DNA from: a virus
IMG/VR virus record: IMGVR_UViG_3300025834_000005
Reading direction: 5' to 3' (one strand)
DNA: 64,000 nt
Part shown: piece after piece, positions 3,607-59,120 of the stretch
Layout of the letters: each line of letters opens with the position of its first letter
Numbering within the stretch: position 1 is the stretch's first letter
The notes under the pieces: model-generated
What the model saw: the letters and a program-made list of their open reading frames with translations, nothing else
Told to the model about the DNA's origin: nothing
Database searches by the model: none
Program-made: the position numbers and the translations under genes

Positions 3607-4332
3607 ATGAAAATAACAAAAGATATCGCATGTAAAATTATAAATTTATTTTATGACGGAAATGGTTACTATGAAATCGCTAATATTGTTGGCGTCAGCG
3701 ATAATACAATTTATAGATTCATCAAATCAAAGGGCTTAAAATCTATTGATAGATTGAAACGACATAAGTGCTCCTTCGACCTAAATGAAATTGGTAATAA
3801 GTATAATCGATTGACAATTGTTGGCACTGAGTATAGCGAAATGTATAAGACTTGGTGCGCAAAATGCATTTGCGACTGTGGACAGGAAACCATTGAGACG
3901 TTACGAAAATTAAAAAATGGCGAAAGAAAAACATGCGGAAATAAAAATTGTGAGCATCATACTGAATTAAAAAGAATTAATGGCACTTTGACCACCACAA
4001 CAGGATATGAAAATATTTTAGGTAGCTCATGGGCATCATGGCGATTAGGAGCAGAACGAAGAAAAATAGATTTTTTAGTCACAATTGAAGAGGCTTGGGA
4101 TATTTATGTAAAACAAAATGGTAAATGTGCATTAACTGGCATAACATTAAAATTCAGAAAGGGTGAAAATAGAATACAAACAGCGTCATTAGATAGAATA
4201 GATTCATCGAAACATTATACTATTGATAATATACAGTGGGTTCATAAAGAAATTAATCGAATGAAAGGTTGTTTGCCCGAAGACAAATTTTTAGAATTTT
4301 GTAAAAATGTTGTAACATGGAACAAGAGTTGA
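3607..4332 (+). CDS. HNH homing endonuclease with N-terminal HTH
   Basis: C-terminal LDRIDSSKHYTIDNIQWVHKEINRMKG (HNH_3-like); N-terminal HTH YYEIANIVGVSDNTIYRFIK; start taken at second ATG. Confidence 0.75.
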   Translation: MKITKDIACKIINLFYDGNGYYEIANIVGVSDNTIYRFIKSKGLKSIDRLKRHKCSFDLNEIGNKYNRLTIVGTEYSEMYKTWCAKCICDCGQETIETLRKLKNGERKTCGNKNCEHHTELKRINGTLTTTTGYENILGSSWASWRLGAERRKIDFLVTIEEAWDIYVKQNGKCALTGITLKFRKGENRIQTASLDRIDSSKHYTIDNIQWVHKEINRMKGCLPEDKFLEFCKNVVTWNKS

Positions 4333-5345
4333 CAAGAGACGAATTTAGGGAAGGCGTTTTTAAACGTGACGATCATAAGTGTGTTATATGCGGTAATTTA
4401 GCTAAAGATGCCCATCACATAATTGAAAGAAGATTATTCAATCCTTCCAGCTCAGGATATTTCATTGATAATGGAGCATCTTTATGCTTTAATCACCATA
4501 TTGAGGCTGAGCAAACTACGCTTAGTTGCGATGAAATTAGATTAAAAGCTGGCATAACAACGATAGTAATTCCAGAGCATTTCTATGGAGATCAGACTTA
4601 CGATAAGTGGGGTAACATAATACTACCAACCGAGCAACGTATTAAGGGAGAGTTGTTTTATGATGAATCTGTTCAAAAGATTTTAAAACAAGGCAACGTC
4701 TTAGACCTGTTTCAAAAATATGTTAAATACCAACGTACCTATCATTTGCCTTGGAGTAATCTGTTAAAGGATGATCGAATCATTAAAGACGATAGCAATT
4801 TCACAGGCAAGAGGGTTATAGCTACGTTGAAAATGGACGGTGAAAACACTACCATGTACAATGACTACATTCATGCGAGGTCATTGGAAAATGCATCGCA
4901 TGAAACAAGGAATTGGGTTAAGGGCTTATGGTCGCAGATCGGCTACATGCTTGATGACAACATGCGAATTTGCGGCGAAAATTTATACGCACAACATTCT
5001 GTTAAATATGATAGTCTTCCATCGTATTTTATGATGTTCTCAATGTGGAGTGACAATACATGCATGTGCTGGGATGAAACTATTGAATACTCAAAGATAT
5101 TAGGGCTGGAAATGGTTCCAATTATCTATGATGGTATCTATGATAAGGATAAAATCATCGCAGCATTCGAGCCTTACAGACTTGCTAATGAGGGCTATGT
5201 AATCAGAATTGCCGATGAATTTAATTACATTGATTTCAGAAGATCAATTGCTAAGTTCGTCAGACCTGAATTTAGGCAAGCTGTTAACAATTCACATGGT
5301 CACTGGATTTCAAAAAAGATTGAAGCAAATGGCTTAAAGTTGTAA
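4317..5345 (+). CDS. HNH-like domain fused to ATP-dependent RNA ligase (Rnl2/PF09414-like)
   Basis: N-terminus HKCVICG...AHHIIERR...NGASLCFNHH (HNH). Ligase motif I KMDGEN, motif IV EGYVIR, motif V AKFVR. Confidence 0.7.
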   Translation: MEQELTRDEFREGVFKRDDHKCVICGNLAKDAHHIIERRLFNPSSSGYFIDNGASLCFNHHIEAEQTTLSCDEIRLKAGITTIVIPEHFYGDQTYDKWGNIILPTEQRIKGELFYDESVQKILKQGNVLDLFQKYVKYQRTYHLPWSNLLKDDRIIKDDSNFTGKRVIATLKMDGENTTMYNDYIHARSLENASHETRNWVKGLWSQIGYMLDDNMRICGENLYAQHSVKYDSLPSYFMMFSMWSDNTCMCWDETIEYSKILGLEMVPIIYDGIYDKDKIIAAFEPYRLANEGYVIRIADEFNYIDFRRSIAKFVRPEFRQAVNNSHGHWISKKIEANGLKL

Positions 5346-5370
5346 CCTTTTATATTGTTTTACGTATAAC
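5341..5370 (+). promoter_or_regulatory. phage promoter-like bipartite motif
   Basis: TGTAACC 5341; TACGTATAAC 5361; ATG 5384. Confidence 0.7.
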
Positions 5371-5383
5371 TAAGAAAAAAGCT

Positions 5384-5689
5384 ATGAAAAAATTACCAGA
5401 AGTCGGAGACAAAATCTATATCGCAGGTCAGATGTATGTGTATAGAGGCGAGGATGACGTCGCAGGGGGATTGGCAACAATTATCGAGGTCATAGTTAGT
5501 GATACTCTACCAGTTGGTCACATCAATAGAGTATTCATTAAACTTAAAGAAGTCCCATATAAGTCATATAATTGGGACATGCTTGAAGAAAAGCAAGAAA
5601 AGCTTGCAAAGGATTATGCTGGTAAAATAGCACATCCAGACCCTGATAACAGACCTGAGTTCAATGACGATAACGAGGGGTGGCATTAA
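5384..5689 (+). CDS. hypothetical protein
   Basis: ORF track; promoter motif upstream. Confidence 0.65.
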   Translation: MKKLPEVGDKIYIAGQMYVYRGEDDVAGGLATIIEVIVSDTLPVGHINRVFIKLKEVPYKSYNWDMLEEKQEKLAKDYAGKIAHPDPDNRPEFNDDNEGWH

Positions 5690-5759
5690 TAAGCTATTGC
5701 CATTGTAGACAGTATGATGCTTTTCAGATATCTTTAGTATTTATTATAAAATTAAAGAT

Positions 5760-6521
5760 ATGCGAGAAGAAATAATTCACGACTACGTGATTAATTTCAT
5801 GAGTACAACAGATTTAGCCACTAAATATAAATTAAATAGGGTAACAATTCAAAGATATTTAATTAAAGGCGGCGTAAGTCTGAGAAGAATTACCCCAAAG
5901 ACAAAGGTAAATCACTATTATTTTTCGAAATATAGTAAAGAAAATTGTTATTGGGCTGGCTTTATCTTAGCGGATGGTTATATCAGAACAAATAAAAGGT
6001 TTACATTATCCATAAAACTTCAAAAGGGCGACATAGATCATCTTGAAAAACTAAAAAATGATATTAAATTTGAAGGTAAAATAATTGAGAGACCCTTATA
6101 TGTAAATATTGACATATCATCAACCCAAATAGTTAAAGACCTTCAAGAAAATTTTGGCATTCACACGAAAAAATCACTTACCTGTGAAATATCGAGTAAA
6201 ATACCTCAAAAGTATCTTAAAGACTTTATTCGTGGGTATTTTGATGGCGATGGCTGTATTACGTATACAACCGTTGATACGATTAGCTTCGTGGGAACTG
6301 AAAAGACTGTAAATTTTATCAAAAATTTCATATATGAAACTGCTCGCATAAAATTAAGAAGTAAAAATTTACCCGATACTGTAGTAAATGGTAATATTTG
6401 TTGCATTTACTACAGCGGCAAAACAGCATATAGTTGCTTAAAATATCTATATGAAAATTCAACAACATATTTAAGTCGTAAATTTAAATTATATCAAGAG
6501 CTAATTAATAAATATCAATAA
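5760..6521 (+). CDS. LAGLIDADG homing endonuclease
   Basis: Two LAGLIDADG motifs, AGFILADGY and RGYFDGDGC; N-terminal HTH. Confidence 0.85.
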   Translation: MREEIIHDYVINFMSTTDLATKYKLNRVTIQRYLIKGGVSLRRITPKTKVNHYYFSKYSKENCYWAGFILADGYIRTNKRFTLSIKLQKGDIDHLEKLKNDIKFEGKIIERPLYVNIDISSTQIVKDLQENFGIHTKKSLTCEISSKIPQKYLKDFIRGYFDGDGCITYTTVDTISFVGTEKTVNFIKNFIYETARIKLRSKNLPDTVVNGNICCIYYSGKTAYSCLKYLYENSTTYLSRKFKLYQELINKYQ

Positions 6522-6527
6522 AAAAAT

Positions 6528-6557
6528 TGTAACATTTTACAAATTACATCGTATAAT
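6528..6557 (+). promoter_or_regulatory. phage promoter-like motif (variant)
   Basis: TGTAACA 6528; ATCGTATAAT 6548; ATG 6573. Confidence 0.6.
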
Positions 6558-6572
6558 ATAAAAATAAACACA

Positions 6573-7328
6573 ATGGGAAATAAAAAAGATTCATTAGGCG
6601 ATAGGATAAAATCCAACTATGAAAACAGAACAAGGTATCTATTGCCGAGACGCACATACACCATGATACGTCTCGATGGAAAGTCCTTCCATTCTTATAC
6701 AAAAGGACTTACAAGACCATTTGACATTAAATTGGTCAATGATATGGATGAAACCACCATTTATCTTTGTAAAAATATTCAAGGAGCAAAGATGGCTTTC
6801 GTTCAATCGGATGAAATTACCATTTTACTTACAGACTTTGATAGTCTAACTTCTGATGCATGGTTTGATGGTAATATTCAAAAAATCGCCAGTATATCAG
6901 CAAGTATGGCTACGGCTAAATTCAATGAATTGAGACCGAATAAGATTGCATTATTCGATAGTAGAGTGTTTACCTTACCAACTGCTACCGAGGTCGCAAA
7001 TGCTTTCATTTGGCGTCAAATGGACACTGTACGCAACAGTATTAGCTCCGTTGCTCAGTCTCTTTACAGTCACAAGGAATTGATGAATAAGAACACGAAT
7101 CAGATGCAAGAACTATGCTTTCAAAAAGGTGTAAACTGGAATGATTACGATCTTAAATTAAAAAACGGTAGGATTATCATGAAAGTTGAAGAAACTCTGG
7201 AAACGCCGTTTAAAGGTGCTGAGTTTGCTCAATCCAATTATACACGTAGTAAATGGAAAAGTGTTGGTGCGCCAACCTTTACGGCTGATCATTCGTTTCT
7301 CGATGCATTGATTCCGATTAACGATTAA
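6573..7328 (+). CDS. Thg1-like protein (tRNA-His guanylyltransferase family, 3'-5' nucleotidyltransferase)
   Basis: MIRLDGKSFHSYTKG...; FVQSDEITILL; size and motif order typical of Thg1/TLP. Confidence 0.8.
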   Translation: MGNKKDSLGDRIKSNYENRTRYLLPRRTYTMIRLDGKSFHSYTKGLTRPFDIKLVNDMDETTIYLCKNIQGAKMAFVQSDEITILLTDFDSLTSDAWFDGNIQKIASISASMATAKFNELRPNKIALFDSRVFTLPTATEVANAFIWRQMDTVRNSISSVAQSLYSHKELMNKNTNQMQELCFQKGVNWNDYDLKLKNGRIIMKVEETLETPFKGAEFAQSNYTRSKWKSVGAPTFTADHSFLDALIPIND

Positions 7329-19312: not shown

Positions 19313-19328
19313 AAAAATCGCAAATATT

Positions 19329-19358
19329 TGTAACCTTTTTTAAGTTGCAACGTATAAG
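19329..19358 (+). promoter_or_regulatory. phage promoter-like motif driving an RNA gene
   Basis: TGTAACC 19329; AACGTATAAG 19349; tRNA-like element starts 19373. Confidence 0.65.
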
Positions 19359-19372
19359 TGATAAAGAATATG

Positions 19373-19439
19373 GGAGTTTTAGCTCAGTTTGATAGAGCGG
19401 TAGAAATACAGGTCAGAGGTTTGAATCCTCTACACTCCC
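19373..19439 (+). ncRNA. tRNA-like element lacking an anticodon arm
   Basis: Acceptor GGAGTTT/ACACTCC (1 mismatch). D arm GCTC-AGTTTGATA-GAGC. T arm AGAGG-TTTGAAT-CCTCT. Variable region AGGTC. Anticodon arm replaced by GTA-GAAA-TAC (19400-19409). Confidence 0.55.
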
Positions 19440-20157
19440 ACTTAGACATGAGTCTACAATAAATACGTTCTTTGAAAATATTTAAATGTTATGGATATTA
19501 CCCGAAGTAATGAGGATAGAGAAAGCTGAGCGATGGCTCATAAAGTCGATGGCAAGTAATGATGTGTAATAAAATCAACTTGATCAGACTCCCGATTGAA
19601 TAATGGACGGACTAAGTGCATATCTCTCAAAATCCATAGTATAAACTTTTCTGCTTGAAGCAATTAGCATAAGATCGTATTAAATGTTACGTGAGTGTAG
19701 ATGTATGCAGATATCGTTAATTGTGTAAAGGATAATTGGTGTAAGCGATGGCTGACGAACAACATTGTGATGAACTTTGCGTATAGGTCGTTTACGGTTA
19801 TTTCCCTGCAATGGACGGAAAAGTTTAAAACATTGTGAATTAAAAACAGGCGTAGTATCATAAAGGCATCTATGTATGTCACGCATAGACTTATCGCCGA
19901 TTGTCAATTTGATACAGTTCACATCACATAATAATCCTGATTTAACAGGATGTTGATAGAGAAATCTAAAGTAAAAATCCATCTGGTAAATGGTATGATT
20001 CGAAGTAGTATAGTGTGTCACTAACCATGAACATTATGACGTTGAAATCTGGGTAAATCGAAAAGAATCACGCTGTTGTTGACATTTCATAGGAGTTCGA
20101 AGCTCTGAAAAATTTGTTGTATCAGCAGACCATCAACGGGGCAACCCTATTTTTTTT
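19440..20157 (+). ncRNA. ORF-free tract 1 (~0.72 kb), candidate large structured RNA
   Basis: No + strand ORF of 60 aa or more in an otherwise tightly packed genome. Lies between a promoter plus tRNA-like element and GGG-GCAA-CCC + T8 (20138-20157). Shares blocks with 20498-21110. Confidence 0.5.
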
Positions 20158-20177
20158 ACAAAATAATGTGTTATTTT

Positions 20178-20207
20178 TGTAACCTTTTTAAAGTTGTTAC
20201 GTATAAC
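20178..20207 (+). promoter_or_regulatory. phage promoter-like bipartite motif
   Basis: TGTAACC 20178; TACGTATAAC 20198; ATG 20226. Confidence 0.7.
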
Positions 20208-20225
20208 ATAGAAACAATAATAATC

Positions 20226-20353: not shown

Positions 20354-20497
20354 GGGCGTGATTCAGTCAACAATGTTTTCAAATCGCATGCAGATAAAAA
20401 ACGTTGTCGGAGAGTTTTCAATGTGAAAGTATAAGAATATCGATAATTCTTTATGATAATATTGATAAAGGGGTTCGATTCCCTACACTGTCCACCA
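20354..20497 (+). ncRNA. tRNA-like RNA with encoded CCA (resembles a tmRNA tRNA-like domain)
   Basis: 5' GGGCGTG pairs with 3' CAC(T)GTCC, including a G3-U pair. T arm GGGG-TTCGATT-CCCT. Ends ...TCCACCA. No D stem or anticodon arm; ~95 nt internal. Confidence 0.4.
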
Positions 20498-21110
20498 TGA
20501 GGGCTTTAGAGGGTATGCATACTTTCAAAAGTTATTGATTGCCAAGTCTAAAACGCCGAGATATCTAAGGCGATAAAGATTATAATCTCTAAAACTCAAC
20601 AGAATTATCATAGAATGATTGAAGTAGTACAAGTAGAAGGCGATGTGGGTATATGCATGTATTCCAAGTAGTTCAGGCAACATTAGTCCATGATGAATAC
20701 GTAGTTATTATGGGTGAGTAAAATAATCTTCAATCATTTTTACATTATTAAAAATAAGTTCAGTTCTGCTTAAAGCAAATAGCAACAAGGCATATATTTC
20801 ACATGAAAGTGTGAGCAGTGGATGTTGAAGATCAATACCAGATCGTTATTTGTGGAGAGTTCAGGCACTGCCAGAGGGTAGGTTAGCCAAATTATGACTT
20901 GGTAAGTTAGACCAGAAATGTTCTTTAAAAGGTTTGCGATGTGGTTCGAATGCTAAGAGCGATAATAGAACTATTTTGGTTTGTGGTATACCAAGAGACG
21001 ACAAAATCCTACAACTCGGTCTTATAAATCGAGGACAGGTGTAAACCACTGCATAAGTCAGCTTGTCGGCGAAAATCCGATCATCGCAAATCTTTTTTTA
21101 TTTAAAAACT
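20498..21110 (+). ncRNA. ORF-free tract 2 (~0.6 kb), candidate large structured RNA
   Basis: No credible + strand ORF. Blocks 20764-20784 and 20811-20859 match 19649-19669 and 19691-19731. T-rich end at 21094-21100. Confidence 0.5.
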
Positions 21111-21956: not shown

Positions 21957-22026
21957 AGATAACAGAATCAGCGAGTTTGATCACTTGGGATTCGGGGAAT
22001 AGTTGATGAAGTATCAGGAATAAGGT

Positions 22027-22057
22027 TTTCGATTGAAAGATGATCATCGAAATTTTT
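22027..22057 (+). terminator. hairpin + T-run
   Basis: TTTCGAT 22027-22033 pairs with ATCGAAA 22046-22052, followed by TTTTT. Confidence 0.55.
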
Positions 22058-22085
22058 GAGTAGTTGACTATTTTTTGTAAATAAT

Positions 22086-22218
22086 GGCAGAATAGCGGAA
22101 TTGGTAAACGCTATATCAGAACTATGGGCGACGTTTAACGATAAGGCAAACCCTAAATGTTTGATATAATCAGGGACTTATCGCTCTGAATTTATTGGTT
22201 CGAGTCCAATTTCTGCCA
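22086..22218 (+). tRNA. tRNA-Leu(UAA)-like gene, expanded to 133 nt
   Basis: Acceptor GGCAGAA/TTCTGCC. D region GCG-GAATTGGTAAA-CGC. T arm ATTGG-TTCGAGT-CCAAT. Anticodon hairpin CAAAC-CCTAAAT-GTTTG (22147-22163, C at position 33). 34 extra nt after the D arm; ~30-nt variable region. Confidence 0.55.
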
Positions 22219-22290
22219 CAGGTCGGGTCATAACCGAATGAACTTTGGAGATCGAGGTAGCCAAAGAGAGATTGAAAAAATGCTCGACCA

Positions 22291-22381
22291 GTCGAAGTAG
22301 CTCAGTTGGTTTAGAGCACCAGCATCGGTCTACGTTTACGTAACGTGTAGGGGGTCAGGGGTTCGAGTCCCTTTTTCGACA
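22291..22381 (+). tRNA. tRNA gene with a 16-nt insert in the anticodon-stem 5' strand
   Basis: Acceptor GTCGAAG/TTTCGAC, with canonical D and T arms. Deleting 22321-22336 gives stem CCTAC/GTAGG and loop GTAACGT (anticodon AAC). The unspliced alternative has a TTACGTA loop (ACG). Confidence 0.55.
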
Positions 22382-22467
22382 CAATGCAGTATTCTCCGAA
22401 AGGAACGAGCATTAGTAGTAACATAGTCAGTGAGGTTCACACTATAGTTTTAGCAACTGACAATCAT

Positions 22468-22647
22468 AGAGCTATGCAGCAGGGGAACTGTTGTACCTAT
22501 TTATAGGATGGCAATGATGCAGAACGGAGTTATCAAATGGATTACATTTAGCTAATGTTTCCATTTAACCAATCTGTAATCATAAATAAAAATAGCAAAT
22601 GCGCATTTGCTTATTTTAGCCTTTGGGTTCGACTCCCTTTAGCTCTG
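22468..22647 (+). ncRNA. tRNA-like gene of 180 nt with a ~106-nt internal expansion
   Basis: Perfect 7-bp acceptor AGAGCTA/TAGCTCT. D arm CAGC-AGGGGAACT-GTTG. T loop GGG-TTCGACT-CCC. Short hairpin CCTA-TTTA-TAGG where the anticodon arm should be. Internal hairpins at about 22533-22567 and 22595-22612. Confidence 0.4.
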
Positions 22648-22735
22648 CATAAAGGAAGAGGCGGTTCATAAAAATCTGGAAAATCCAGATACCGAGAAGT
22701 ATAAAAAATTCTTCTTCCGATTAAAGTATTAATAC

Positions 22736-22777
22736 ACCTTCCATGCCTCTCCACGATGCACACTTGGAAGGTTTTTT
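22736..22777 (+). terminator. hairpin + T-run closing the tRNA-like cluster
   Basis: ACCTTCCA 22736-22743 pairs with TGGAAGGT 22765-22772, followed by TTTTT. Confidence 0.5.
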
Positions 22778-22781
22778 CTTT

Positions 22782-22811
22782 TGTAACCTTTTCAACTTTA
22801 TTACGTATAAC
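22782..22811 (+). promoter_or_regulatory. phage promoter-like bipartite motif
   Basis: TGTAACC 22782; TACGTATAAC 22802; ATG 22827. Confidence 0.7.
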
Positions 22812-22826
22812 TTAGAAAATATTTAC

Positions 22827-37771: not shown

Positions 37772-38755
37772 TTATCCCCTAAAATAGCTATCCCCTGCAA
37801 TTTGTTTTGCCTTGTCTTCGCTGCTGGTCTTAATATATCTAAAAAAGCTTTTCTCCGTTGTGTGTCCCGTTAGTGCCATAATCTCATATGTTCCCATCCT
37901 TGCGGTCTGGTACATGTTCGTGGCTGCACTACGTCGAGCTGTATGACTTGAAATAAGTTCCCATGCCTGCTTAGTCTCATAAATCAATTTACCGCCTTTC
38001 GTATAATTAAATTTCACATCCTCGTTAAATCCAATTAGTTTACAAATCTTTTTTATGCTTCTATTAAAGTATTGGATTGAAACTCCCGAATACAAATTTC
38101 CATTATATTTATTAAGAATTTCACGCACATAATCATGGATCGGAATAGTAATCCTTGTTTTTGTTTTCTTGACTATTTTTATGATAAAATCCTTTGTGAA
38201 ATTGTCCGTAGTCAAGGTGGAATAATCAGAAAAGCGTAATGCTGTCAAACATCCAACCACAAACAAATCTCTTATTTTCTCCTGCTTTTTAGTCAATCCC
38301 ATATAGTAATAAATTCTCGTGATTTTATTCATGCTCAGAAAAATCGAGAAAGTGTTTTCAAGCTTAATGCTAACGTCATCATAAGATGGATCAACTGCAT
38401 AGCCGTATTTTGCCGCTTTAGCCGCCATCGATTTAACAAGCGACAGCAAATTTGAGATGTAGTTTTGACGAAGATCATTCCCCTCAAGGTAAGTCACAAA
38501 ATCTTCAAGAAACTCCTCTCCAACAGAGTTCGTATAGATGTTGGCGTTGTATTGTTTCGAAAATGCGTTGAGATGTAGGATAAGGGTATTGTAGTTCTTC
38601 ACATACATTTCACTCATTCTATTTGATTTCCGCAGTGCAGTCACTGCAACAAAATCCGCAAAAAGTACGCCAGTTTTGGGTTCATTTTGTATTAAACGGT
38701 TAATGTAGTCCCGTTTGCCCGATAGGTCTTTTTCCACTTTTAAAGCTACGCTCAT
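37772..38755 (-). CDS. tyrosine recombinase / integrase (Bacteroidota-type)
   Basis: ALRFSD (Arg I), SHTARRS (H-x-x-R), GHTTEKSFFRYI (His/Tyr); N-terminal SAM-like domain. Confidence 0.85.
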   Translation of the reverse strand: MSVALKVEKDLSGKRDYINRLIQNEPKTGVLFADFVAVTALRKSNRMSEMYVKNYNTLILHLNAFSKQYNANIYTNSVGEEFLEDFVTYLEGNDLRQNYISNLLSLVKSMAAKAAKYGYAVDPSYDDVSIKLENTFSIFLSMNKITRIYYYMGLTKKQEKIRDLFVVGCLTALRFSDYSTLTTDNFTKDFIIKIVKKTKTRITIPIHDYVREILNKYNGNLYSGVSIQYFNRSIKKICKLIGFNEDVKFNYTKGGKLIYETKQAWELISSHTARRSAATNMYQTARMGTYEIMALTGHTTEKSFFRYIKTSSEDKAKQIAGDSYFRG

Positions 38756-38873
38756 TTCGTAATTTCATTTATAATAATAAAGCCATAATAAGTGTAGAGC
38801 GGCTTACGAAAACCGTTAGTAATGTATCTAAAGCACTTATGGCTTCATTATATATTAATATATAACTCCGTAA

Positions 38874-38881
38874 TTTCTCGC
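38874..38881 (-). promoter_or_regulatory. possible Bacteroidota -7 box TAACTTTG upstream of the integrase
   Basis: Minus-strand TAACTTTG matches the TAnnTTTG consensus; no clear -33 TTTG. Confidence 0.3.
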
Positions 38882-39063
38882 TGCAAAGTTACGGATTTAA
38901 TTTGAAATGATAATAAAAACATATTTTTTTTTCAAACGCACCTCGTTGTTCTCCAATATAAGCTATTAGCATTGGGTTAACTCAACATTTATCAAGAATT
39001 CGTGATAGATCCTGACCCGTCACAAATTAATGTAACAAAGTTCATGTAGTCTCTAAATGTGAA

Positions 39064-40779
39064 CTAAAGTGACTTTGTATATGCCACCCAAGAAAGCACA
39101 TCATAAGCAAGTGAATAAAGCCCCAATAAATCGGGATGATCCGCATCTGCTGCATTTACCCGAACATTATTTCCCGTCATTAGATCAATCGTTGGATATG
39201 ATGTACTGCCGCCGACTGGCAAAGTAAAAAACGATGAAAGTAAAGAAACTCTATCGGTTACTTCAACGTTGTAAACTGCAAGCAAAGCCGCAATAAGAGC
39301 ATGATAATACGCTATTCTTGCATTGCCGGCCTGTAATTTATAGCCAACCAAATTGTCATAATCAAATAGTGTTCCTAACGCTCTCTGTGGCAAAATAGCA
39401 ATGTAAGAGGTTGGTAAATCAGCCTTAGCCTTAGCGACTAATTGCTGAATATCTGCCAGTACTTTAGTGACATTATCGGCAACACTCGTTTGTCCGAAAG
39501 CATTCAAATCATTTCCGCTTACCTCAATTACAAAGTTTGTCGGAGTATTCACATCATAGGCTGCAACGTCAGTAACTTTTGTCCCCACTGTCGGACTTTG
39601 CAGCGTTAATCTTACGCCTGAATCATCAAGCGTACGATAACGTGATATATACTTTGTAATTGAAAAGGCGTAAGTACCCGTTGACCTTGCTACGGCAACA
39701 TCAAAGAAAGGGTTTAATGGATTGACTTCGATTAAATCCTTCATTGCGGCCATGACAGCTACATTCTCACCTATCGAATATGAAGAACCTAAAACATAGC
39801 CCATGTTATTGTATTTCAAGGCATTCCAAAGTTCTTGCGTTAAGTCTGGAAGATAATAGCCATGAGGTGTTGACCGGATTAATTCAAGTTGTGAAACCGA
39901 TCCGGTATAGGTTGTATAAGCAGTTCCTGTGTATGAATCATAGCCATTTGCTTCACTCGTAGTATTCCACACTATTTTTTTACCTAATCCCAAAGAATCC
40001 CATGCCTGTGCACCTTTAGTAAACCATCCTGTCACATAAGATGTTGATGTAGGACGTATATTAGTGCAATGTCTTAAATATGATGCAGCCGTATAACCGC
40101 CACGTCCTTCACAACCGGCATTAAATGTTTTCGTTTGCCCCCTCCATGTTGCTTTTCTGGTAGCAGGTAGAACAGTACCGAGTATATTGTAACCTATCTT
40201 AGGGTCATTGACGCTGTAAGCGGTCATATCCAAATTGATCATCTCGATCATCTTTCCAATCAGAGCAGGGTAATGATAACCCTTTCCCCATGCCGTAGGG
40301 TCAATATTGAACCAATAACCAAAGTCCTGATAGCTCTGACCACTCCAACTATCCCCCATTGCAAGCACCGATAGATATTTATTACGCATATTGGCGGTTG
40401 TGGACTTTACAAGTTTGAAAGTTACATTTTTAGCGATATAACCAGGTGCTGATAATTCAACTGTAATGTTTTCAGATACAACTTTTTGAACATCAGTAAC
40501 CCTTGTATTCGATTCAAGCAAAAAAGTGTCATTTTTATTAATCATCAATTTAATGAGTGAATAAATAAATGATTCCCTGTATAACCTTTGAACAAAGCCA
40601 GAATTATTAAAGTCTGTCCAATTACTAAATTTGTTATCTAAAGCAAAAATTATAGTAGGGTTAAGCGTCATAGGTATTTCAGAATCCCCATCAATGACTG
40701 TTTCATAATGATTTAAATCACTATTCAATGAATTTACAAACTGATCACCTGTCATTCCTATTGTTACATTATTTCTCAT
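39064..40779 (-). CDS. SGNH/GDSL-type esterase domain protein (possible receptor-modifying tail fibre or spike)
   Basis: LAMGDSWSG (block I GDS) and C-terminal DADHPD (D-x-x-H). Confidence 0.6.
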   Translation of the reverse strand: MRNNVTIGMTGDQFVNSLNSDLNHYETVIDGDSEIPMTLNPTIIFALDNKFSNWTDFNNSGFVQRLYRESFIYSLIKLMINKNDTFLLESNTRVTDVQKVVSENITVELSAPGYIAKNVTFKLVKSTTANMRNKYLSVLAMGDSWSGQSYQDFGYWFNIDPTAWGKGYHYPALIGKMIEMINLDMTAYSVNDPKIGYNILGTVLPATRKATWRGQTKTFNAGCEGRGGYTAASYLRHCTNIRPTSTSYVTGWFTKGAQAWDSLGLGKKIVWNTTSEANGYDSYTGTAYTTYTGSVSQLELIRSTPHGYYLPDLTQELWNALKYNNMGYVLGSSYSIGENVAVMAAMKDLIEVNPLNPFFDVAVARSTGTYAFSITKYISRYRTLDDSGVRLTLQSPTVGTKVTDVAAYDVNTPTNFVIEVSGNDLNAFGQTSVADNVTKVLADIQQLVAKAKADLPTSYIAILPQRALGTLFDYDNLVGYKLQAGNARIAYYHALIAALLAVYNVEVTDRVSLLSSFFTLPVGGSTSYPTIDLMTGNNVRVNAADADHPDLLGLYSLAYDVLSWVAYTKSL

Positions 40780-41918
40780 AGTCCATTGATTGATTTAAGA
40801 TAGTTATAAATTAATTGGTGATTTCCATCAGTATCCTTTATTTTTCTTATAATGATTCCTTTAACTTTTATATTACTAAACCTATCATCACCCAGGTAGC
40901 GTGAACCTAACCTGAATCCCGTCATATTAGAACCACCATATATTGCCGTTTCTTTAATATTATTATTGATAATAGAAAATCCATCCCATCCATTCAGGCA
41001 CAATCTCAAAATGCTCCATGTATTTAATCCAAATTGCGTACTAACTAAATGCTGAGCGTTTGTGTAAAAACAAGTTTGAGGCGCTGTATCTCTTAGTTCA
41101 AATGTTCCTTGTCCATGTGGATTTTGATATACATCAAATATTACATCTAATGATGACCATGTGATTACTTTTCCGACAAAATATATCATTTCTGCTGGTT
41201 GTGTTATTCCTAATACCCCAAACAGAGAATCATTTAATCCGTCAAATAAAACCCCATCTGAGTCTAATACTGGCTTTAACGAATCTGCGCCTGTCTGTAA
41301 TAAGTGATTATTATTACCTGATTTATCTGGCCACGATGAAATTGATGTGCCGCTTAAATCTTTATAGCTATACCATCCAACCGTATTGCCATCTGATAAA
41401 ATTGCAGGAGCGTCAATAGGAAATATGCTTTGGCCAATTCTATTTCCTTTTACATGACCATTTGCATTCAAAGAGTTATTCCAAAAAATAGATAGTTGAA
41501 ACCATTTAAAAAGGTCATTTAACTGAGGTTGTGTAAATGTTTCTCCCGACTTGATGATAGCAATCATTCTTATCTGATACGGAGTTGTATCGTCATACTT
41601 AACGGGCGTTCGTTGCAAGTCATATCCAATTAATTCGGCTGTTGTAACTGTCCGATTTGTGGCACTCGTATTAAACCAAATAAAATCAGTATCAGCGGCA
41701 ATGTAGGGTGCAGTATTGGGACATTGAAAAGTTTCTAATCCTGCACTTCCCGAAACGGTGAGCCAATCTGATCCCACCTTATTTGGCATCTTTCCCCCCG
41801 AAATAGCAGAGTAGTCCCCTAAGAACAGAAACTTATCTTTCAGCCATTGCGGAAGTTTCAACAATGCCCCTTGTTGAAATATCTGTCTTATACCTATTCC
41901 TGTTTTTATTCTTGGCAT
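40776..41918 (-). CDS. LamG/concanavalin-like lectin domain protein
   Basis: WPDKSGNNNHLLQ...KPVLDSDGVLFDGLNDSL is typical of Laminin_G_3 domains in phage fibres; ATGA-type overlap with the downstream gene. Confidence 0.55.
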   Translation of the reverse strand: MPRIKTGIGIRQIFQQGALLKLPQWLKDKFLFLGDYSAISGGKMPNKVGSDWLTVSGSAGLETFQCPNTAPYIAADTDFIWFNTSATNRTVTTAELIGYDLQRTPVKYDDTTPYQIRMIAIIKSGETFTQPQLNDLFKWFQLSIFWNNSLNANGHVKGNRIGQSIFPIDAPAILSDGNTVGWYSYKDLSGTSISSWPDKSGNNNHLLQTGADSLKPVLDSDGVLFDGLNDSLFGVLGITQPAEMIYFVGKVITWSSLDVIFDVYQNPHGQGTFELRDTAPQTCFYTNAQHLVSTQFGLNTWSILRLCLNGWDGFSIINNNIKETAIYGGSNMTGFRLGSRYLGDDRFSNIKVKGIIIRKIKDTDGNHQLIYNYLKSINGL

Positions 41919-41988
41919 GTCACGAGTTTTTTTTTACCGTCCGAGTTTTCATGAAAATAAACAAACGGTGAATTATGTAATATTTTCA

Positions 41989-42429
41989 TTATATTGGTTT
42001 TAACCAAGCTGTAATCGAGTCAGCTGCGCCTGTAAGCCGAATACTTGTAATTTTATTTGCGAATGGTTGCCATTCGGTATTTGTTAAAACAAGAGGAACG
42101 GTCTTAAGAACCTCTTCTCCGCCAACTGCGCCAGCGACAATAGGCGTTAAAGCGACATTCTTTTTCAATGCTGCAATGATCACGCCGTCTGTTCGACAAG
42201 TAAATGAGCCAAAACAAAATCCATTAGGCGCAAATGCTTCGGCTATTCCGACAATAATTTTATTTCCGTAATAGCCCTGACTCATTTTTGCATATATATC
42301 GGAAGCATTATTCAAGTCCAAAAGAATTGCGACGCCACTATTAATCAGGATTAAACCTGTTGTATCATCCACATCTACAGATTTTCCAGAAGCTACATCG
42401 TTCCAAGATTGAGTTAATTGTATCAGCAT
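41989..42429 (-). CDS. hypothetical protein
   Basis: ORF track; first gene of the minus-strand cassette. Confidence 0.55.
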   Translation of the reverse strand: MLIQLTQSWNDVASGKSVDVDDTTGLILINSGVAILLDLNNASDIYAKMSQGYYGNKIIVGIAEAFAPNGFCFGSFTCRTDGVIIAALKKNVALTPIVAGAVGGEEVLKTVPLVLTNTEWQPFANKITSIRLTGAADSITAWLKPI

Positions 42430-48833: not shown

Positions 48834-50159
48834 ATGTTTGATTTAAAAGGAAAGCACACAGATGCTATTTTATATTTAGATAATTATGAGGACGGTTTAT
48901 TCGAGCAAATCTACCCAATCATTAACTCATATGTATCCAAAGGCTTAAAGGTTCGTATTATGCCAGATGCCCATATTGGTAAAGGTATCTGTATCGGTTT
49001 CACTATGGAATTGGGTCAGTATTTGAATCCGAACTGGTGTGGCGTTGATATTGGCTGCGGAATGCTGTCAGGCAGATTTAAAGCAAATGGCGTATTAGAC
49101 TTAGCCATGATCGATGAAAAGATCAAGAAATTAGTTCCTATGGGATTTAATGTTCATGAGGGTGCTAAGTCGAAAAAGATTCCATATGCCGAAGTACAGG
49201 AATTAGCGAACAAATTTGCTGAAAAGTATAATGAAAAGTTTGGTACTTCTTATGTTGCGCCTTCTTACAATGAGAAATGGCTGAAAACTAAGCTAAAGAC
49301 TATTGGTATGGATGCTGAGAAGTTATTCAAGTCAATCGGAACTTTAGGTGGTGGTAATCACTTCATTGAACTTGGGTATGACGAAGAGTCAAAGGATAAC
49401 TGGATTACAGTTCACTGTGGTTCAAGAAACTTAGGTGTTAAGGTATGTGAGTACTGGCTGAACCAAGCTAAAACACAGTCAAATGATACCTCACCTGAAT
49501 ATCTTGCGGAATTCGATGCTTTGGTTAAGAATACTGTGGATAGATCAACAATACCTCAGTTGATGAAGGAATTAAGAGAGAAATATAAAAAGGGTATTGA
49601 TCGTGATTACCTTTCAGATGAATTGTCCGTAGGATATTTGTTTGATATGATCTTTGCTCAAAAATATGCTGAATGGAATCGTCAGACTATACTTGATATA
49701 ATCCAAAAGATTTTGAAAGTGAAGGCTTTTGACGAAGTTATTTCATCAGTGCATAACTATGTCGACTTTCATGACTTCATCATCAGAAAAGGCTCTATTT
49801 CATCATATGTGGGTCAAAAAATGATTATTCCTTTTAATCAAAAGGATGGTATGCTTATCTGCGAAGGTAAATCAAATCCTGACTGGAATAACTCTGCGCC
49901 ACACGGAGCAGGTAGACTCTATTCAAGATCGAAAGCTAAGGAATTGATCACTCTTGAAATGGTTGAAGAATCAATGAAAGGAATCTATTCAACATCAGTA
50001 TGTAATTCGACTATTGATGAATCGGTTTTTGCCTACAAAGATTCTAAAATGATCGAAGAAGCGATTCAAGATACCGCAACAATTCTTCATAGGGTAAAAC
50101 CTATTTTGAATATTAAGGATTCAACAGCCGCTCCAAGACGTTCGAAGAAAAATCAGTAA
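48834..50159 (+). CDS. rtcB: RtcB RNA 3'-phosphate/5'-OH ligase
   Basis: CGVDIGCGM, TLGGGNHFIELG, HCGSRNLG, NSAPHGAGR. Confidence 0.9.
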   Translation: MFDLKGKHTDAILYLDNYEDGLFEQIYPIINSYVSKGLKVRIMPDAHIGKGICIGFTMELGQYLNPNWCGVDIGCGMLSGRFKANGVLDLAMIDEKIKKLVPMGFNVHEGAKSKKIPYAEVQELANKFAEKYNEKFGTSYVAPSYNEKWLKTKLKTIGMDAEKLFKSIGTLGGGNHFIELGYDEESKDNWITVHCGSRNLGVKVCEYWLNQAKTQSNDTSPEYLAEFDALVKNTVDRSTIPQLMKELREKYKKGIDRDYLSDELSVGYLFDMIFAQKYAEWNRQTILDIIQKILKVKAFDEVISSVHNYVDFHDFIIRKGSISSYVGQKMIIPFNQKDGMLICEGKSNPDWNNSAPHGAGRLYSRSKAKELITLEMVEESMKGIYSTSVCNSTIDESVFAYKDSKMIEEAIQDTATILHRVKPILNIKDSTAAPRRSKKNQ

Positions 50160-57067: not shown

Positions 57068-58501
57068 ATGAGTAAATTGAACCCTATTTTAAAAAGTGGC
57101 GTTTCTGATTTAAAATCAGATGAAAGACTTGCTGGTGGATTTGGAACCAGAGCAGCTAAACAAGACGAATTAGCTCTATTACGTAGAGTTGTTTTAGCGA
57201 ACCTATTATGGGAAAACATTGCGTATGCTAACGGTGAAGATGTTTCAACACAGATCAGCCAGTTGATTCCGCAATGTAATCCTCAAGATGTTGCTGATCT
57301 TGCTGTTGAGGCGAGACTTGAGCAGAAATTGCGTCATACTCCTTTGTTTATTTGTGTTGAAATGCTGAAACACGTTGGATATTCTGCGTTGGTTGCCGAT
57401 ATCTTACCAAAGATTATCACAAGAGCAGACATGATTACAGACTTTCTTGCTATCTACAAGAAACAGAATGGCGGTAAGCTAAAGCCTTTGGCTGCTGCTG
57501 CTAAGAAAGGTTTGGCGAAAGCATTCGATAACTTTAACGAATACCAATTCGCTAAATATGACAGGGATGCCGAGATCAAGTTAAGGGATGCTATGTTTTT
57601 AGCTCACCCAAAACCATCTTCACAGGAAAAGATTGAACTTTACAAGAAAGTTGCTGATCGTACTTTGAAAACTCCTGATACATGGGAAGTTGCTTTATCG
57701 ACAGGTAAAGATAAGAAAGCCACATGGGAGAGATTGATCGATGAAAAGAAAATCGGTGGTTTGGCAATGTTGCGCAATGTACGTAATATGGTTCAGTCGG
57801 GTGTTAACTCGAATAGCATTAGAAAGGGATTGAAAAATCTAAATAGTTCGATGTTATTGCCTTTCAATTTCTTAACAGCCTCAAGGTTTGCACCTGAGTA
57901 TTCGAGAGATATTGAGGATGCTATGGTTGAGTCTTATAAGAATCTTCCTAAATTATCTGGAAAGACATTATTCATTGTCGATATTTCAGGCTCAATGGGT
58001 GCTAAATTATCTGACAAGTCGGGAATGTCCAGAATGGATGCTGCTTGTGCAATGGCTATGCTTGCGATTAATCAATGTGAAAACTATGAAATCGTAGCAA
58101 CTGCTGGGAATGATGGTTCGCATAAAGGTGCTCATAAGCATATTCTAAATCCAAAAAAGGGATTCGATGTGTTCAAGCAAATTCAAAGTGCTGGAAGTGA
58201 AATCGGCTGTGGTGGTATTTTCACCAGACAGTGTATCGAATGGTGTAAAGCCAACGTATCTGATACATTCGACAGAATTATCATATTCTCTGACTCACAG
58301 GATTGCGATCTTATGAATGCGAGAATTCCAGCACCTTACGGCAAATATAACTATATTTGCGACGTATCGTCAAATGAGAGAGGCGTTAACTTTAGGAATG
58401 TATGGGATGCCGAAATTACAGGTATGTCTGAAAACTTCCTAACATATATCGCTGCAAACGAAGGTCTAACAAATAAATTTGACGACCAGAGTGAAAATTA
58501 A
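57068..58501 (+). CDS. rsr: Ro60 ortholog (TROVE domain + C-terminal vWA)
   Basis: TROVE signatures ...TPDTWEVALS..., GGLAMLRNVRNMVQSG; vWA MIDAS FIVDISGSMG. Confidence 0.85.
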   Translation: MSKLNPILKSGVSDLKSDERLAGGFGTRAAKQDELALLRRVVLANLLWENIAYANGEDVSTQISQLIPQCNPQDVADLAVEARLEQKLRHTPLFICVEMLKHVGYSALVADILPKIITRADMITDFLAIYKKQNGGKLKPLAAAAKKGLAKAFDNFNEYQFAKYDRDAEIKLRDAMFLAHPKPSSQEKIELYKKVADRTLKTPDTWEVALSTGKDKKATWERLIDEKKIGGLAMLRNVRNMVQSGVNSNSIRKGLKNLNSSMLLPFNFLTASRFAPEYSRDIEDAMVESYKNLPKLSGKTLFIVDISGSMGAKLSDKSGMSRMDAACAMAMLAINQCENYEIVATAGNDGSHKGAHKHILNPKKGFDVFKQIQSAGSEIGCGGIFTRQCIEWCKANVSDTFDRIIIFSDSQDCDLMNARIPAPYGKYNYICDVSSNERGVNFRNVWDAEITGMSENFLTYIAANEGLTNKFDDQSEN

Positions 58502-58504
58502 TCA

Positions 58505-58554
58505 ACAAAGGTACTATTTATACTTGCAAATTAAATATTAAATAGTACCTTTGT
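58505..58554 (+). terminator. 16-bp perfect hairpin with an 18-nt loop
   Basis: ACAAAGGTACTATTTA 58505-58520 pairs with TAAATAGTACCTTTGT 58539-58554. Confidence 0.55.
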
Positions 58555-58570
58555 AAAAATATTAAGTAAT

Positions 58571-58635
58571 AGCGTTCGGTAAGGGTTACTTCCTCCATAA
58601 ATGAAATCACACCCTACCATCAGTTCTTTGCTTAC
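58571..58635 (+). ncRNA. structured RNA module U1 (Y-RNA-like candidate)
   Basis: AGCGTTC + helix GGTAAGGGT (58578-58586) / ACCCTACC (58611-58618) + tail ATCAGTTCTTTGCTTAC. Confidence 0.5.
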
Positions 58636-58650
58636 AAAAATTTAGATAAT

Positions 58651-58720
58651 GGCGTTCGATACGGTTACTTCCTTTTACGAAATATTCACCGTATTATCTT
58701 TTTCCTTATCTATTTATATC
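58651..58720 (+). ncRNA. structured RNA module U2
   Basis: GGCGTTC + helix GATACGGT (58658-58665) / ACCGTAT (58688-58694) + tail TATCTTTTTCCTTATC... Confidence 0.5.
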
Positions 58721-58785
58721 GGAGTGTGTCTTGGCTTGTAATGCAGTATACGGTATTATATGAGGATCGTCCCCTCGCACACCGA
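58720..58785 (+). ncRNA. short tRNA-like element (acceptor/T-arm minihelix plus one hairpin)
   Basis: CGGAGTG/CACACCG (1 mismatch); T-arm-like TGAGG-ATCGTCC-CCTCG; no D arm. Confidence 0.25.
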
Positions 58786-58797
58786 CAAATGAATAAT

Positions 58798-58909
58798 GGC
58801 GTTAGAAACAGTTTCATCAACTCAATCTCAATAATTAAGATCAACTCAATCTCAATAATTAAGTAAATACAAAACTCTGTCTCTCATTTTCCTTATTCAT
58901 CTATATTAT
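58798..58909 (+). ncRNA. structured RNA module U3 (contains a 24-nt tandem duplication)
   Basis: GGCGTTA + helix GAAACAG (58805-58811) / CTGTCTC (58877-58883) + tail TCATTTTCCTTATTCATC... Confidence 0.45.
58817..58864 (+). repeat. tandem duplication 2 x 24 nt
   Basis: TCAACTCAATCTCAATAATTAAGA at 58817-58840 and TCAACTCAATCTCAATAATTAAGT at 58841-58864. Confidence 0.9.
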
Positions 58910-59033
58910 AGGGCGTTAGCTCAGTTGGTAGAGCGCGAAATTCTCTTTTACACCTTTTCCCTTTATTGTGGCGTTCGTAAAAGTTACTTCATTCTTAATG
59001 ACGAGGTCGGTGGTTCGAGTCCATCATGCCCTA
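58910..59033 (+). tRNA. tRNA-Lys(CUU)-like gene interrupted by a 51-nt insert in the anticodon stem
   Basis: Acceptor AGGGCGT/ATGCCCT. D arm GCTC-AGTTGGTA-GAGC. T arm GGTGG-TTCGAGT-CCATC. Variable region AGGTC. Deleting 58938-58988 gives stem CGTCA/TGACG and loop TTCTTAA. Confidence 0.65.
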
Positions 59034-59044
59034 CGAAAAACAAT

Positions 59045-59120
59045 AGTGTTCGAGACAGTTTCATCAAAAAAATCGAAATTTTTATACAAAAAACTCTGTC
59101 TTAACTGTTCTTTGTTTTTT
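59045..59120 (+). ncRNA. structured RNA module U5
   Basis: AGTGTTC + helix GAGACAG (59052-59058) / CTGTCTT (59096-59102) + tail AACTGTTCTTTGTTTTTTTT. Confidence 0.45.

Follow-up and report, generated by a model that had tools for sequence, protein, structure and literature searches.

What does a phage transfer RNA (tRNA) island encode when the anticodon arm is abnormal in each of its members? The question is raised by a 64,000-nucleotide (nt) stretch of viral DNA (IMG/VR record IMGVR_UViG_3300025834_000005), the whole of which is referred to here as the window. An earlier note on this stretch had described a cluster of three non-canonical tRNA genes at 22086-22647, which are called here element 1 (22086-22218), element 2 (22291-22381) and element 3 (22468-22647), all on the plus strand. 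The cluster is probably a polycistronic non-coding RNA operon that is punctuated by non-decoding tRNA mimics. The anatomy of the elements, their structural constraint and the lack of a conserved anticodon are established below; their processing and partners are put forward conditionally.

Anatomy and constraint of the 22-kb cluster

The window was scanned for ordinary tRNAs with ARAGORN and with the Rfam tRNA covariance model (RF00005, gathering threshold 29 bits). ARAGORN returned no canonical tRNA. The Rfam model matched three places, each aberrant: 22291-22381 (45 bits; 29 nt where the model expects 13), 58910-59033 (42.6 bits; 64 nt where the model expects 13) and, in a targeted scan, 19373-19439 (40.1 bits; a GAAA tetraloop replaces the anticodon loop). 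The covariance-model scan, which the earlier note had proposed as a check, thus found aberrant elements only, and the claim that the window holds no canonical tRNA was upheld. Elements 1 and 3 gave no Rfam tRNA match at E ≤ 10. A frame scan for acceptor, D arm and T arm recovered element 1 and failed on element 3, in which the T stem has only 3 bp. The statement that every member has a good acceptor, D arm and T loop therefore holds for elements 1 and 2 and needs amending for element 3. Seven standard acceptor pairs are present in each of the three elements; by our own arithmetic, a perfect 7-bp partner within about 285 nt of a given T arm arises by chance in about 1.7% of cases. No element has a canonical anticodon arm (5-bp stem, 7-nt loop, U33, purine at 37, normal spacing), and the anticodon is not kept between orthologues in elements 1 and 2. 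The main claim of the note, an abnormal anticodon arm beside good acceptor and T arms in every tRNA-like gene of the window, was confirmed.

Two comparators were used. L112 is a Logan contig that carries the whole cluster and encodes a flanking 106-residue protein of 69% identity; L204 is an IMG/VR contig that starts inside the cluster and holds the end of spacer 2, element 3 and the 3' RNA. Alignment of these orthologous islands, also proposed earlier, revealed structural constraint in all three elements, which appear to be structure-constrained RNAs and not decaying genes.

Element 1 has a class-II (Leu-type) tRNA frame with ∼48 extra nt relative to a canonical tRNA. From its fold and the comparison with L112 it was divided into a perfect 7-bp acceptor (22086-22092/22211-22217), a D arm (22095-22111) with the D loop AATTGGTAAA, a 9-bp long-arm stem (22112-22120/22160-22168) that encloses a 39-nt interior (22121-22159), a variable-arm hairpin (22170-22189) and a T arm (22194-22210; ATTGG-TTCGAGT-CCAAT). 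The L112 copy scores 22.5 bits with the Rfam tRNA model, below the threshold of 29, and differs by 21 substitutions and one indel. Of 37 model pairs, four carry a two-sided change (three in the variable arm and one in the T stem) and four carry a one-sided change that preserves the pair. Random placement of the substitutions would give 0.39 double changes (P for four or more ∼1e-4) and 8.6 broken pairs, against two observed (P = 0.0007). The likeness to T4 tRNA-Leu that the note had pointed out holds for the frame of element 1 when set beside the T4 sequence, and the D loop, the T loop TTCGAGT and the hairpin CAAAC-CCUAAAU-GUUUG (22147-22163) are present. The hairpin, however, loses one pair in L112 (A-U to U.U) and its 'anticodon' changes from UAA to GAA, whereas the competing 9-bp stem has two pair-preserving changes. 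On the basis of the pair conservation and the changes in the competing stem, we infer that element 1 is an RNA under selection, in which a long rod stands instead of an anticodon arm. An RNAalifold fold of element 1 was discarded because it mis-paired the D strand with the variable-arm loop, and the explicit pair count was used instead. The inner helices of the minimum free energy fold (UGGG/CCUA and GUUU/AAAC) were also rejected, each losing one pair in L112 when read by eye. With introns allowed, ARAGORN reported element 1 as Asn(GUU) with U37 and a long variable arm.

Element 2 comprises an acceptor (22291-22297/22374-22380), a D arm (22300-22317) and a T arm (22357-22373; AGGGG-TTCGAGT-CCCTT), and its L112 orthologue scores 42.6 bits with the Rfam tRNA model. 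All 16 acceptor, D and T pairs are kept in L112, five of them through one-sided wobble-preserving changes. The middle (22319-22351) evolves fast; it contains CC/GG proximal pairs, a 16-nt insert on the 5' side (22321-22336) and the distal hairpin TAC-GTAACGT-GTA, and over its 31-33 nt it is 54.5% identical to L112 in an optimal alignment, the level of unrelated sequence. Deletion of 22321-22336 gives CCTAC, GTAACGT and GTAGG, as the note had reported. In both lineages a single deletion at 28/29 (16 nt in the window, 14 nt in L112) is enough to recover a 5-bp stem whose 7-nt loop has U33 and a purine at 37, and the recurrence of an insert at this position also held in five of six Ro60-linked elements described below. 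The restored loops are GUAACGU (AAC) in the window versus AUGUAAG (GUA) in L112. When the middle was shuffled with the outer two pairs given, one deletion restored the arm in 4.6% of cases for the window and 3.3% for L112. The 28/29 geometry thus recurs in both lineages, but no decoding identity is conserved with it. Inspection of 22315-22345 revealed no bulge-helix-bulge motif, no formal search having been run; AGC/GUU pairing is possible there by eye, without 3-nt bulges. The start of element 2, GUCGAAG, fits the Ro60-type pattern GNCGAAN0-1G, L112 has GUCGAAAUG instead, and the match is possibly due to chance.

Element 3, defined by its fold and by comparison with L204, is closed by a 7-bp acceptor-like stem (22468-22474/22640-22646; AGAGCTA/TAGCTCT) that is followed by a 5' hairpin. 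The hairpin CCTA-TTTA-TAGG (22496-22507) lies where an anticodon arm would be expected, within a structured domain of 127 nt (22480-22606). A terminator-like hairpin with a U-run (22594-22617) and the T hairpin GGG-TTCGACT-CCC (22625-22637) complete the element. The closing stem and the short hairpin are as first described, but the T stem is reduced to 3 bp and the extra nucleotides lie mainly at the variable-arm position. Among 53 pairs predicted by RNAalifold for the window and L204, three have two-sided changes, 11 have one-sided changes and none is broken; the closing stem reads AGAGCUA/UAGCUCU in the window and GGGGUUA/UAGCUUC in L204. The L112 copy lacks the 127-nt domain and is an acceptor/T minihelix of ∼52 nt, reduced to the closing stem and the T hairpin with a short linker. 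Element 3 lacks an anticodon arm altogether. ARAGORN intron calls were obtained at low threshold only, as Leu or Asn. A 15-codon frame at 22508-22555 (L204 150-197) has the same length and the same stop position in both, although 13 of the 48 nt differ; it is translated as MAMMQNGVIKWITFS in the window versus MVMIQRRIIVWIAFS in L204, each followed by a stop, which lies in a conserved hairpin loop and changes from UAA to UGA. A second frame is equally open.

The RNA between and around the elements is also conserved. Spacer RNA 1 (22219-22290) is 91.8% identical to L112, with 19 pairs in the consensus fold and none broken. Spacer RNA 2 (22382-22467) is 96.5% identical and forms two hairpins, one of which has a CC-GAAA-GG tetraloop; the second changes from GUCAGU/ACUGAC to GCCAGC/ACUGGC in L204, where by eye five of six pairs are kept and one U-A has become C-G. 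A 3' structured RNA (22648-22775) is 93% identical to L112 and has a fold z-score of −3.8. These three parts are more conserved than the tRNA-like parts, beside an adjoining protein at 69% amino acid identity. Upstream, a leader (21957-22085) separates the 106-residue gene from element 1. It is absent from L112, and the sigma-70-like match at 22056-22085 is of consensus level only. In L112, element 1 starts 6 nt past the stop codon, so the cluster there would be co-transcribed and would need processing.

The 3' RNA ends in an abiF RNA motif (RF03085, 22737-22772) that is at the same time the intrinsic terminator of the unit. Against a gathering score of 37, it reaches 40.5 bits in the window and 40.9 in L112 (1186-1221), and it is also present in L204 (∼466-501). 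The gene downstream of the motif is a different one in the window, in L112 and in L204. The abiF loop pattern TGCCTCTCNACGATGCAC has at least 119 exact matches in IMG/VR, most of them without a sizeable open reading frame (ORF) just downstream, and T-loop motifs lie within 700 nt upstream at 14 of 119 viral abiF-motif loci. The orphan motif could be an antitoxin mimic directed against AbiF. In L204 the 3' RNA is longer by an insertion of ∼92 nt (369-460) immediately before the abiF hairpin, and the 170-residue and 95-residue genes that follow the cluster in the window are missing. A promoter-like phage repeat, TTTGTAACC...ACGTATAAC (22779-22818, plus strand), starts the next transcription unit.

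Other tRNA-like elements and the genome setting

The island is larger than the three genes first described, with further tRNA-like elements at 19373-19439 and 20354-20497. The former is a 67-nt RNA whose anticodon arm is a 3-bp stub with a GNRA tetraloop (GUA-GAAA-UAC). Its counterpart in L012 (2035-2100) has GUA-GCAA-UAC, and the acceptor stem covaries between the two; L013 has the same frame as L012 with a different 29-nt middle. The element at 20354-20497 is a 144-nt RNA resembling transfer-messenger RNA (tmRNA), with the acceptor GGGCGUG, a G3.U70 pair and an encoded ACCA 3' end. Its full-length Rfam tmRNA alignment reaches 11 bits only, and a counterpart of ∼95 nt with G3.U70 occurs in L012 (2168-2262). 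Directly 3' of these two elements lie the ORF-poor stretches 19440-20165 (∼725 nt) and 20498-20980 (∼480 nt), which may represent large non-coding RNAs; Rfam returned nothing for them at E ≤ 1. Copies of the repeat family D1 occur at 19326-19365, 20175-20214 and 22779-22818, with a similar sequence at ∼59160. This repeated promoter-like sequence, TTTGTAACCTTTT-N-ACGTATAA, lies ahead of transcription units, among them the tRNA-like element at 19373.

A companion tRNA-like element on the plus strand (58910-59033) carries a Ro60-type module in its anticodon arm and lies 409 nt 3' of a Ro60 gene (57068-58501). Relatives of this gene (38-86% identity) carry the same tRNA-like RNA alongside, in at least five lineages. 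The insert contains UGGYG-N10-UUACUUC, in which the spacing is always 10 nt. The motif, written UGGYG-N10-UU(A/U)C(U/A)UC, has five copies in the window, all within 58560-59066, and three to five copies beside Ro60 in relatives; four of the window copies are free-standing hairpin units (∼58560, 58648, 58794 and 59040) and the fifth is inside 58910-59033. In a scan with a relaxed pattern, all exact matches that also have the full motif fall within 58652-59065, with a variant at ∼58560, and the other three exact matches are on the minus strand and lack UGG. A helix strand within the 10-nt spacer covaries with its partner, both among tRNA-like copies (CUUUUAC/GUAAAAG, CCUUGGCC/GGUCAUGG, CUCUUAU/AUAAGAG) and among free-standing copies (GGUAAGGGU/ACCCUACC versus UGGCAUGG/CCAUGCCA). 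Because of this covariation, a promoter interpretation of the motif was rejected. A match to the Rfam YrlA model in the relative L025 (45 bits, threshold 69) is collinear with the 58910 RNA segment by segment, in circularly permuted order. Taken together, the module, the Ro60 adjacency and the collinearity with L025 point to a tRNA-ordered YrlA-type Y RNA rather than an intron-containing tRNA, and the units at 58500-59120 together resemble a group of Y RNAs of the YrlB and YrlA types. Neither the Ro60-type motif, in a pattern scan of the window, nor the adjacency to Ro60 was found for the 22-kb cluster, which lies 35 kb upstream of that gene.

The distal hairpin of the 58910-type RNAs has an anticodon-like loop in which the triplet varies (CUU, CCU, CUU, UCU, UUG). 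In the five Ro60-linked elements noted above, the 28/29 deletion restores a 5-bp stem and a 7-nt loop, provided that the last D-stem base is counted in L022 and with a junction that can equally be placed at 27/28 in L024. Shuffled 58910 middles were restorable by one deletion in 3.2% of cases, and ARAGORN reported an intron-containing Ser(ACU) for this element. The sequence TTTTCCTTAT(T)C.ATTT occurs at 58700-58720 and 58888-58909 and in L024 (4553, 4765 and 5413), immediately upstream of the Ro60-linked tRNA-like RNA and of ORF starts, and may represent a second promoter class.

The window belongs to a phage genome of ∼328 kb that is found in near-unchanged copies in several metagenomes. The window has a G+C content of ∼34% and no DNA match in deposited phages. 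Sigma-70-like promoters and intrinsic terminators suggest that the phage is bacterial-type. Pfam was searched with 45 window ORFs of at least 140 residues and two smaller ones, which identified an RNA ligase (PF09414, 4317-5345), a Thg1-like enzyme (6573-7328), RtcB (48834-50159), the Ro60/TROVE protein and a DHH phosphoesterase. Within 4317-7328 the RNA ligase, a LAGLIDADG endonuclease and the Thg1-like tRNA 5'-end repair enzyme are adjacent. Judged by its domains, the gene set appears to form an unusually full tRNA-repair kit. No Abi_2 domain was found in the scanned ORFs, nor a tRNA-intron endonuclease domain, many of the ORFs having no Pfam match and the window covering 64 of the ∼328 kb. 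A minus-strand block with reversed GC skew (37772-42429), made up of a tyrosine integrase (37772-38755) and three ORFs without Pfam match, looks like an inserted element.

Proposed processing and competing explanations

Relatives of the 170-residue protein encoded downstream (45-57% identity) were found at ∼95 loci, with no homologue between 60% and 100% identity. At these loci the syntenic place is occupied by ordinary tRNA clusters and not by the aberrant elements, and a tRNA-Ala(UGC) lies ∼520-590 nt upstream of the gene, the position of element 2. Because relatives have canonical clusters at the same place, elements 1-3 would descend from ordinary tRNA genes. Exact-pattern scans of IMG/VR and GTDB genomes with element 2, the tetraloop element and the spacers found no further lineage, and a search of the window for antisense targets of the element 2 middle, the element 1 interior and the element 3 domain gave chance-level 10-13-mers only.

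The proposed unit of ∼0.8 kb (about 21957-22775, plus strand) would consist of element 1, a spacer, element 2, a spacer, element 3 and the 3' RNA. The parts kept would be those that tRNA-handling enzymes read, namely the acceptor and T arm and, except in element 3, the D arm. In place of the anticodon arm there would be a long rod in element 1, a stem that carries 14-16 inserted nt on its 5' side and a 7-nt loop that is not conserved in element 2, and nothing in element 3. Host RNase P, RNase Z and the CCA-adding enzyme would recognise the tRNA-shaped modules, and the precursor would be cut there, releasing and stabilising the tRNA mimics, the spacer RNAs and the abiF-motif RNA. The mimics would be unable to decode and probably engage tRNA-binding proteins. 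All six elements have one pattern in common, a selected acceptor/T/D core beside an anticodon arm that is replaced, capped or drifting, and so do their counterparts in relatives; this pattern suggests modules read by tRNA-processing or tRNA-binding proteins and not by the ribosome. Several points weigh against the operon of mimics. The comparators are L112 and the partial L204 only, so that covariation rests on sequence pairs. Conservation extends to the long arm and interior of element 1, which suggests a function beyond that of a processing handle. The U-run hairpin inside element 3 could end transcription before the T arm, and the conservation of the spacers might be at the DNA level or stem from recent transfer. 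Finally, a 7-nt loop with U33 and a purine at 37 after the 28/29 deletion in both lineages is what an intron model predicts.

Such a model, implied by the earlier note, takes the elements as intron-containing tRNAs in which a protein endonuclease cuts the insert at 28/29 and the phage RtcB joins the halves into decoding tRNAs. It draws on the restoration by a single deletion in element 2 of both lineages and in the five Ro60-linked elements (chance 3-5% each), on the presence of RtcB and on the Val(AAC) that ARAGORN gives for element 2 with introns allowed. Decoding is, however, hard to reconcile with restored anticodons that vary on the same body (AAC versus GUA, CUU versus CCU), with the odd G32 and A34 of the restored window loop, or with the lack of an anticodon arm in element 3; no sensible product is obtained from elements 1 and 3. 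The intron solutions of ARAGORN differ from the 28/29 junctions and are mutually inconsistent, and the inserts are unlike one another in sequence and in length (16, 14 and 51-55 nt). Neither the bulge-helix-bulge nor the endonuclease domain was seen within the scope given above, and the 58910 insert module also occurs free-standing and in the permuted YrlA of L025, where splicing yields no tRNA. Literature on phage tRNA introns with RtcB, or on T4 species 1 RNA, was sought and nothing was found. We regard this model as improbable. A version in which 28/29 stem introns are cut by an unrecognised phage or host endonuclease and joined by RtcB, giving decoding tRNAs with fast anticodon turnover, while the Ro60-linked insert is a Y RNA, is very doubtful. 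That the elements are functionless, decaying tRNA pseudogenes is highly improbable. Intact tRNAs do lie at the same place in relatives, the element 2 middle evolves as if unconstrained and the L112 copy of element 3 has a T loop of 6 nt; but six independent elements are each altered in the anticodon arm only, compensatory substitutions are far above the random expectation and the flanking spacers are highly conserved.

A different role for the same RNAs would be that of tRNA-shaped baits for host defence proteins that target tRNA (anticodon nucleases, or HEPN RNases such as AbiF), or of cofactors of Ro60, RtcB or Thg1-like proteins. The fast-changing loops would then reflect an arms race, and the abiF-motif RNA on the same transcript would neutralise AbiF, as such RNA does in trans (PMC12373285). 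The anticodon-like loops indeed differ between close orthologues (AAC/GUA; CUU/CCU/UCU/UUG), the abiF motif is conserved without an Abi_2 gene among the scanned ORFs, the tRNA-repair gene set is dense in the window, and the 14 viral abiF-motif loci with T-loop motifs upstream fit the same pattern. Lack of constraint would explain the loop variation equally well, however, elements 1 and 3 have no anticodon-like loop to offer, and the Ro60-type motif of 58.5-59.1 kb is missing from the 22-kb cluster. We hold this role to be possible and on the whole unlikely. Element 3, and with it 20354-20497, might instead be a miniaturised tmRNA-like RNA with a short tag frame. In favour of this are a closing stem and T arm from which the anticodon arm is missing, the 15-codon frame that L204 retains with a stop in the hairpin loop, G3.U70 and A73 in the L204 stem, G3.U70 and an encoded CCA at 20354-20497, and the tmRNAs above the Rfam threshold that L022 and L024 encode near Ro60. 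Element 3 of the window nevertheless has A3-U70 and G73, the whole domain is missing in L112, and the second frame is as open as the first. ARAGORN found no tmRNA in L112 or L204, nor at default settings in the window, and the Rfam tmRNA model matches just 13 nt, at the T arm of element 3; the low-threshold ARAGORN tmRNA calls in the window are located elsewhere and look spurious. A tmRNA-like identity is highly improbable.

Significance and known systems

If the cluster is an operon of tRNA mimics, a phage 'tRNA island' would have switched from supplying decoders to supplying tRNA-shaped RNAs, and would offer a clear example from nature of an operon of several RNAs in which the upper half of tRNA serves anew as a module. 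Conserved small RNAs and an orphan antitoxin-type abiF motif appear to be placed on one transcript, in a phage with Ro60, RtcB, a second RNA ligase and a Thg1-like enzyme, which points to an RNA-based layer in the conflict over tRNA cleavage and repair. The putative tRNA-ordered form of YrlA bears on the origin of Y RNAs from tRNAs. In practice, tRNA finders miss such genes or assign spurious introns and anticodons to them.

Archaeal introns at non-canonical positions are alike in that an insert in the anticodon stem is removed to restore the cloverleaf, and RtcB is encoded here too. They differ from the present elements, for which the phage is bacterial-type, no bulge-helix-bulge was seen by eye, no EndA domain turned up among the scanned ORFs and orthologues do not share an anticodon. 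The tRNA-like domain of tmRNA has an acceptor and a T arm, no anticodon arm and a large insert between them, but the elements score far below the Rfam threshold and element 3 of the window lacks G3.U70. Bacterial YrlA-type Y RNAs are partners of Ro60/Rsr that mimic tRNA (PMC4201824). Like the 58910 RNA they have a tRNA-like D/T core in which the anticodon-stem position leads into another module, and the UGGYG-N10-UUACUUC module is collinear with the 5' region of the L025 YrlA match. YrlA is circularly permuted, with the T arm before the D arm and the acceptor loop-closed, whereas the phage RNA is in tRNA order; the motif is missing from the 22-kb elements, which are 35 kb away from the Ro60 gene.

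The 3' tRNA-like structures of plant viruses, the tRNA-like RNAs of murine gammaherpesvirus 68 (MHV68) and mascRNA are tRNA mimics that act as processing or stability signals. As proposed for the 22-kb elements, they retain the top half that RNase P, RNase Z and the CCA-adding enzyme recognise while the anticodon region varies, but hosts and contexts differ and no homology is known. Phage T4 encodes RNAs C and D (species 1 and 2), stable non-tRNA RNAs that are embedded in a tRNA cluster and are cut from a polycistronic precursor by the tRNA-processing machinery. To our knowledge no function has been assigned to them. T4 rnaC (139 nt) folds into hairpins and a perfect T arm (CCGGG-UUCGAAU-CCCGG), closed by a terminal stem, a layout like that of elements 1 and 3. 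The present cluster differs in that it has no sequence similarity to the T4 RNAs, all island members are non-canonical, two elements keep a full D arm and the unit ends in an abiF motif. By architecture, known here from sequence, T4 rnaC compares well and would be the nearest precedent, and the cluster may in turn help to explain the T4 species 1 and 2 RNAs, which have long been a puzzle.

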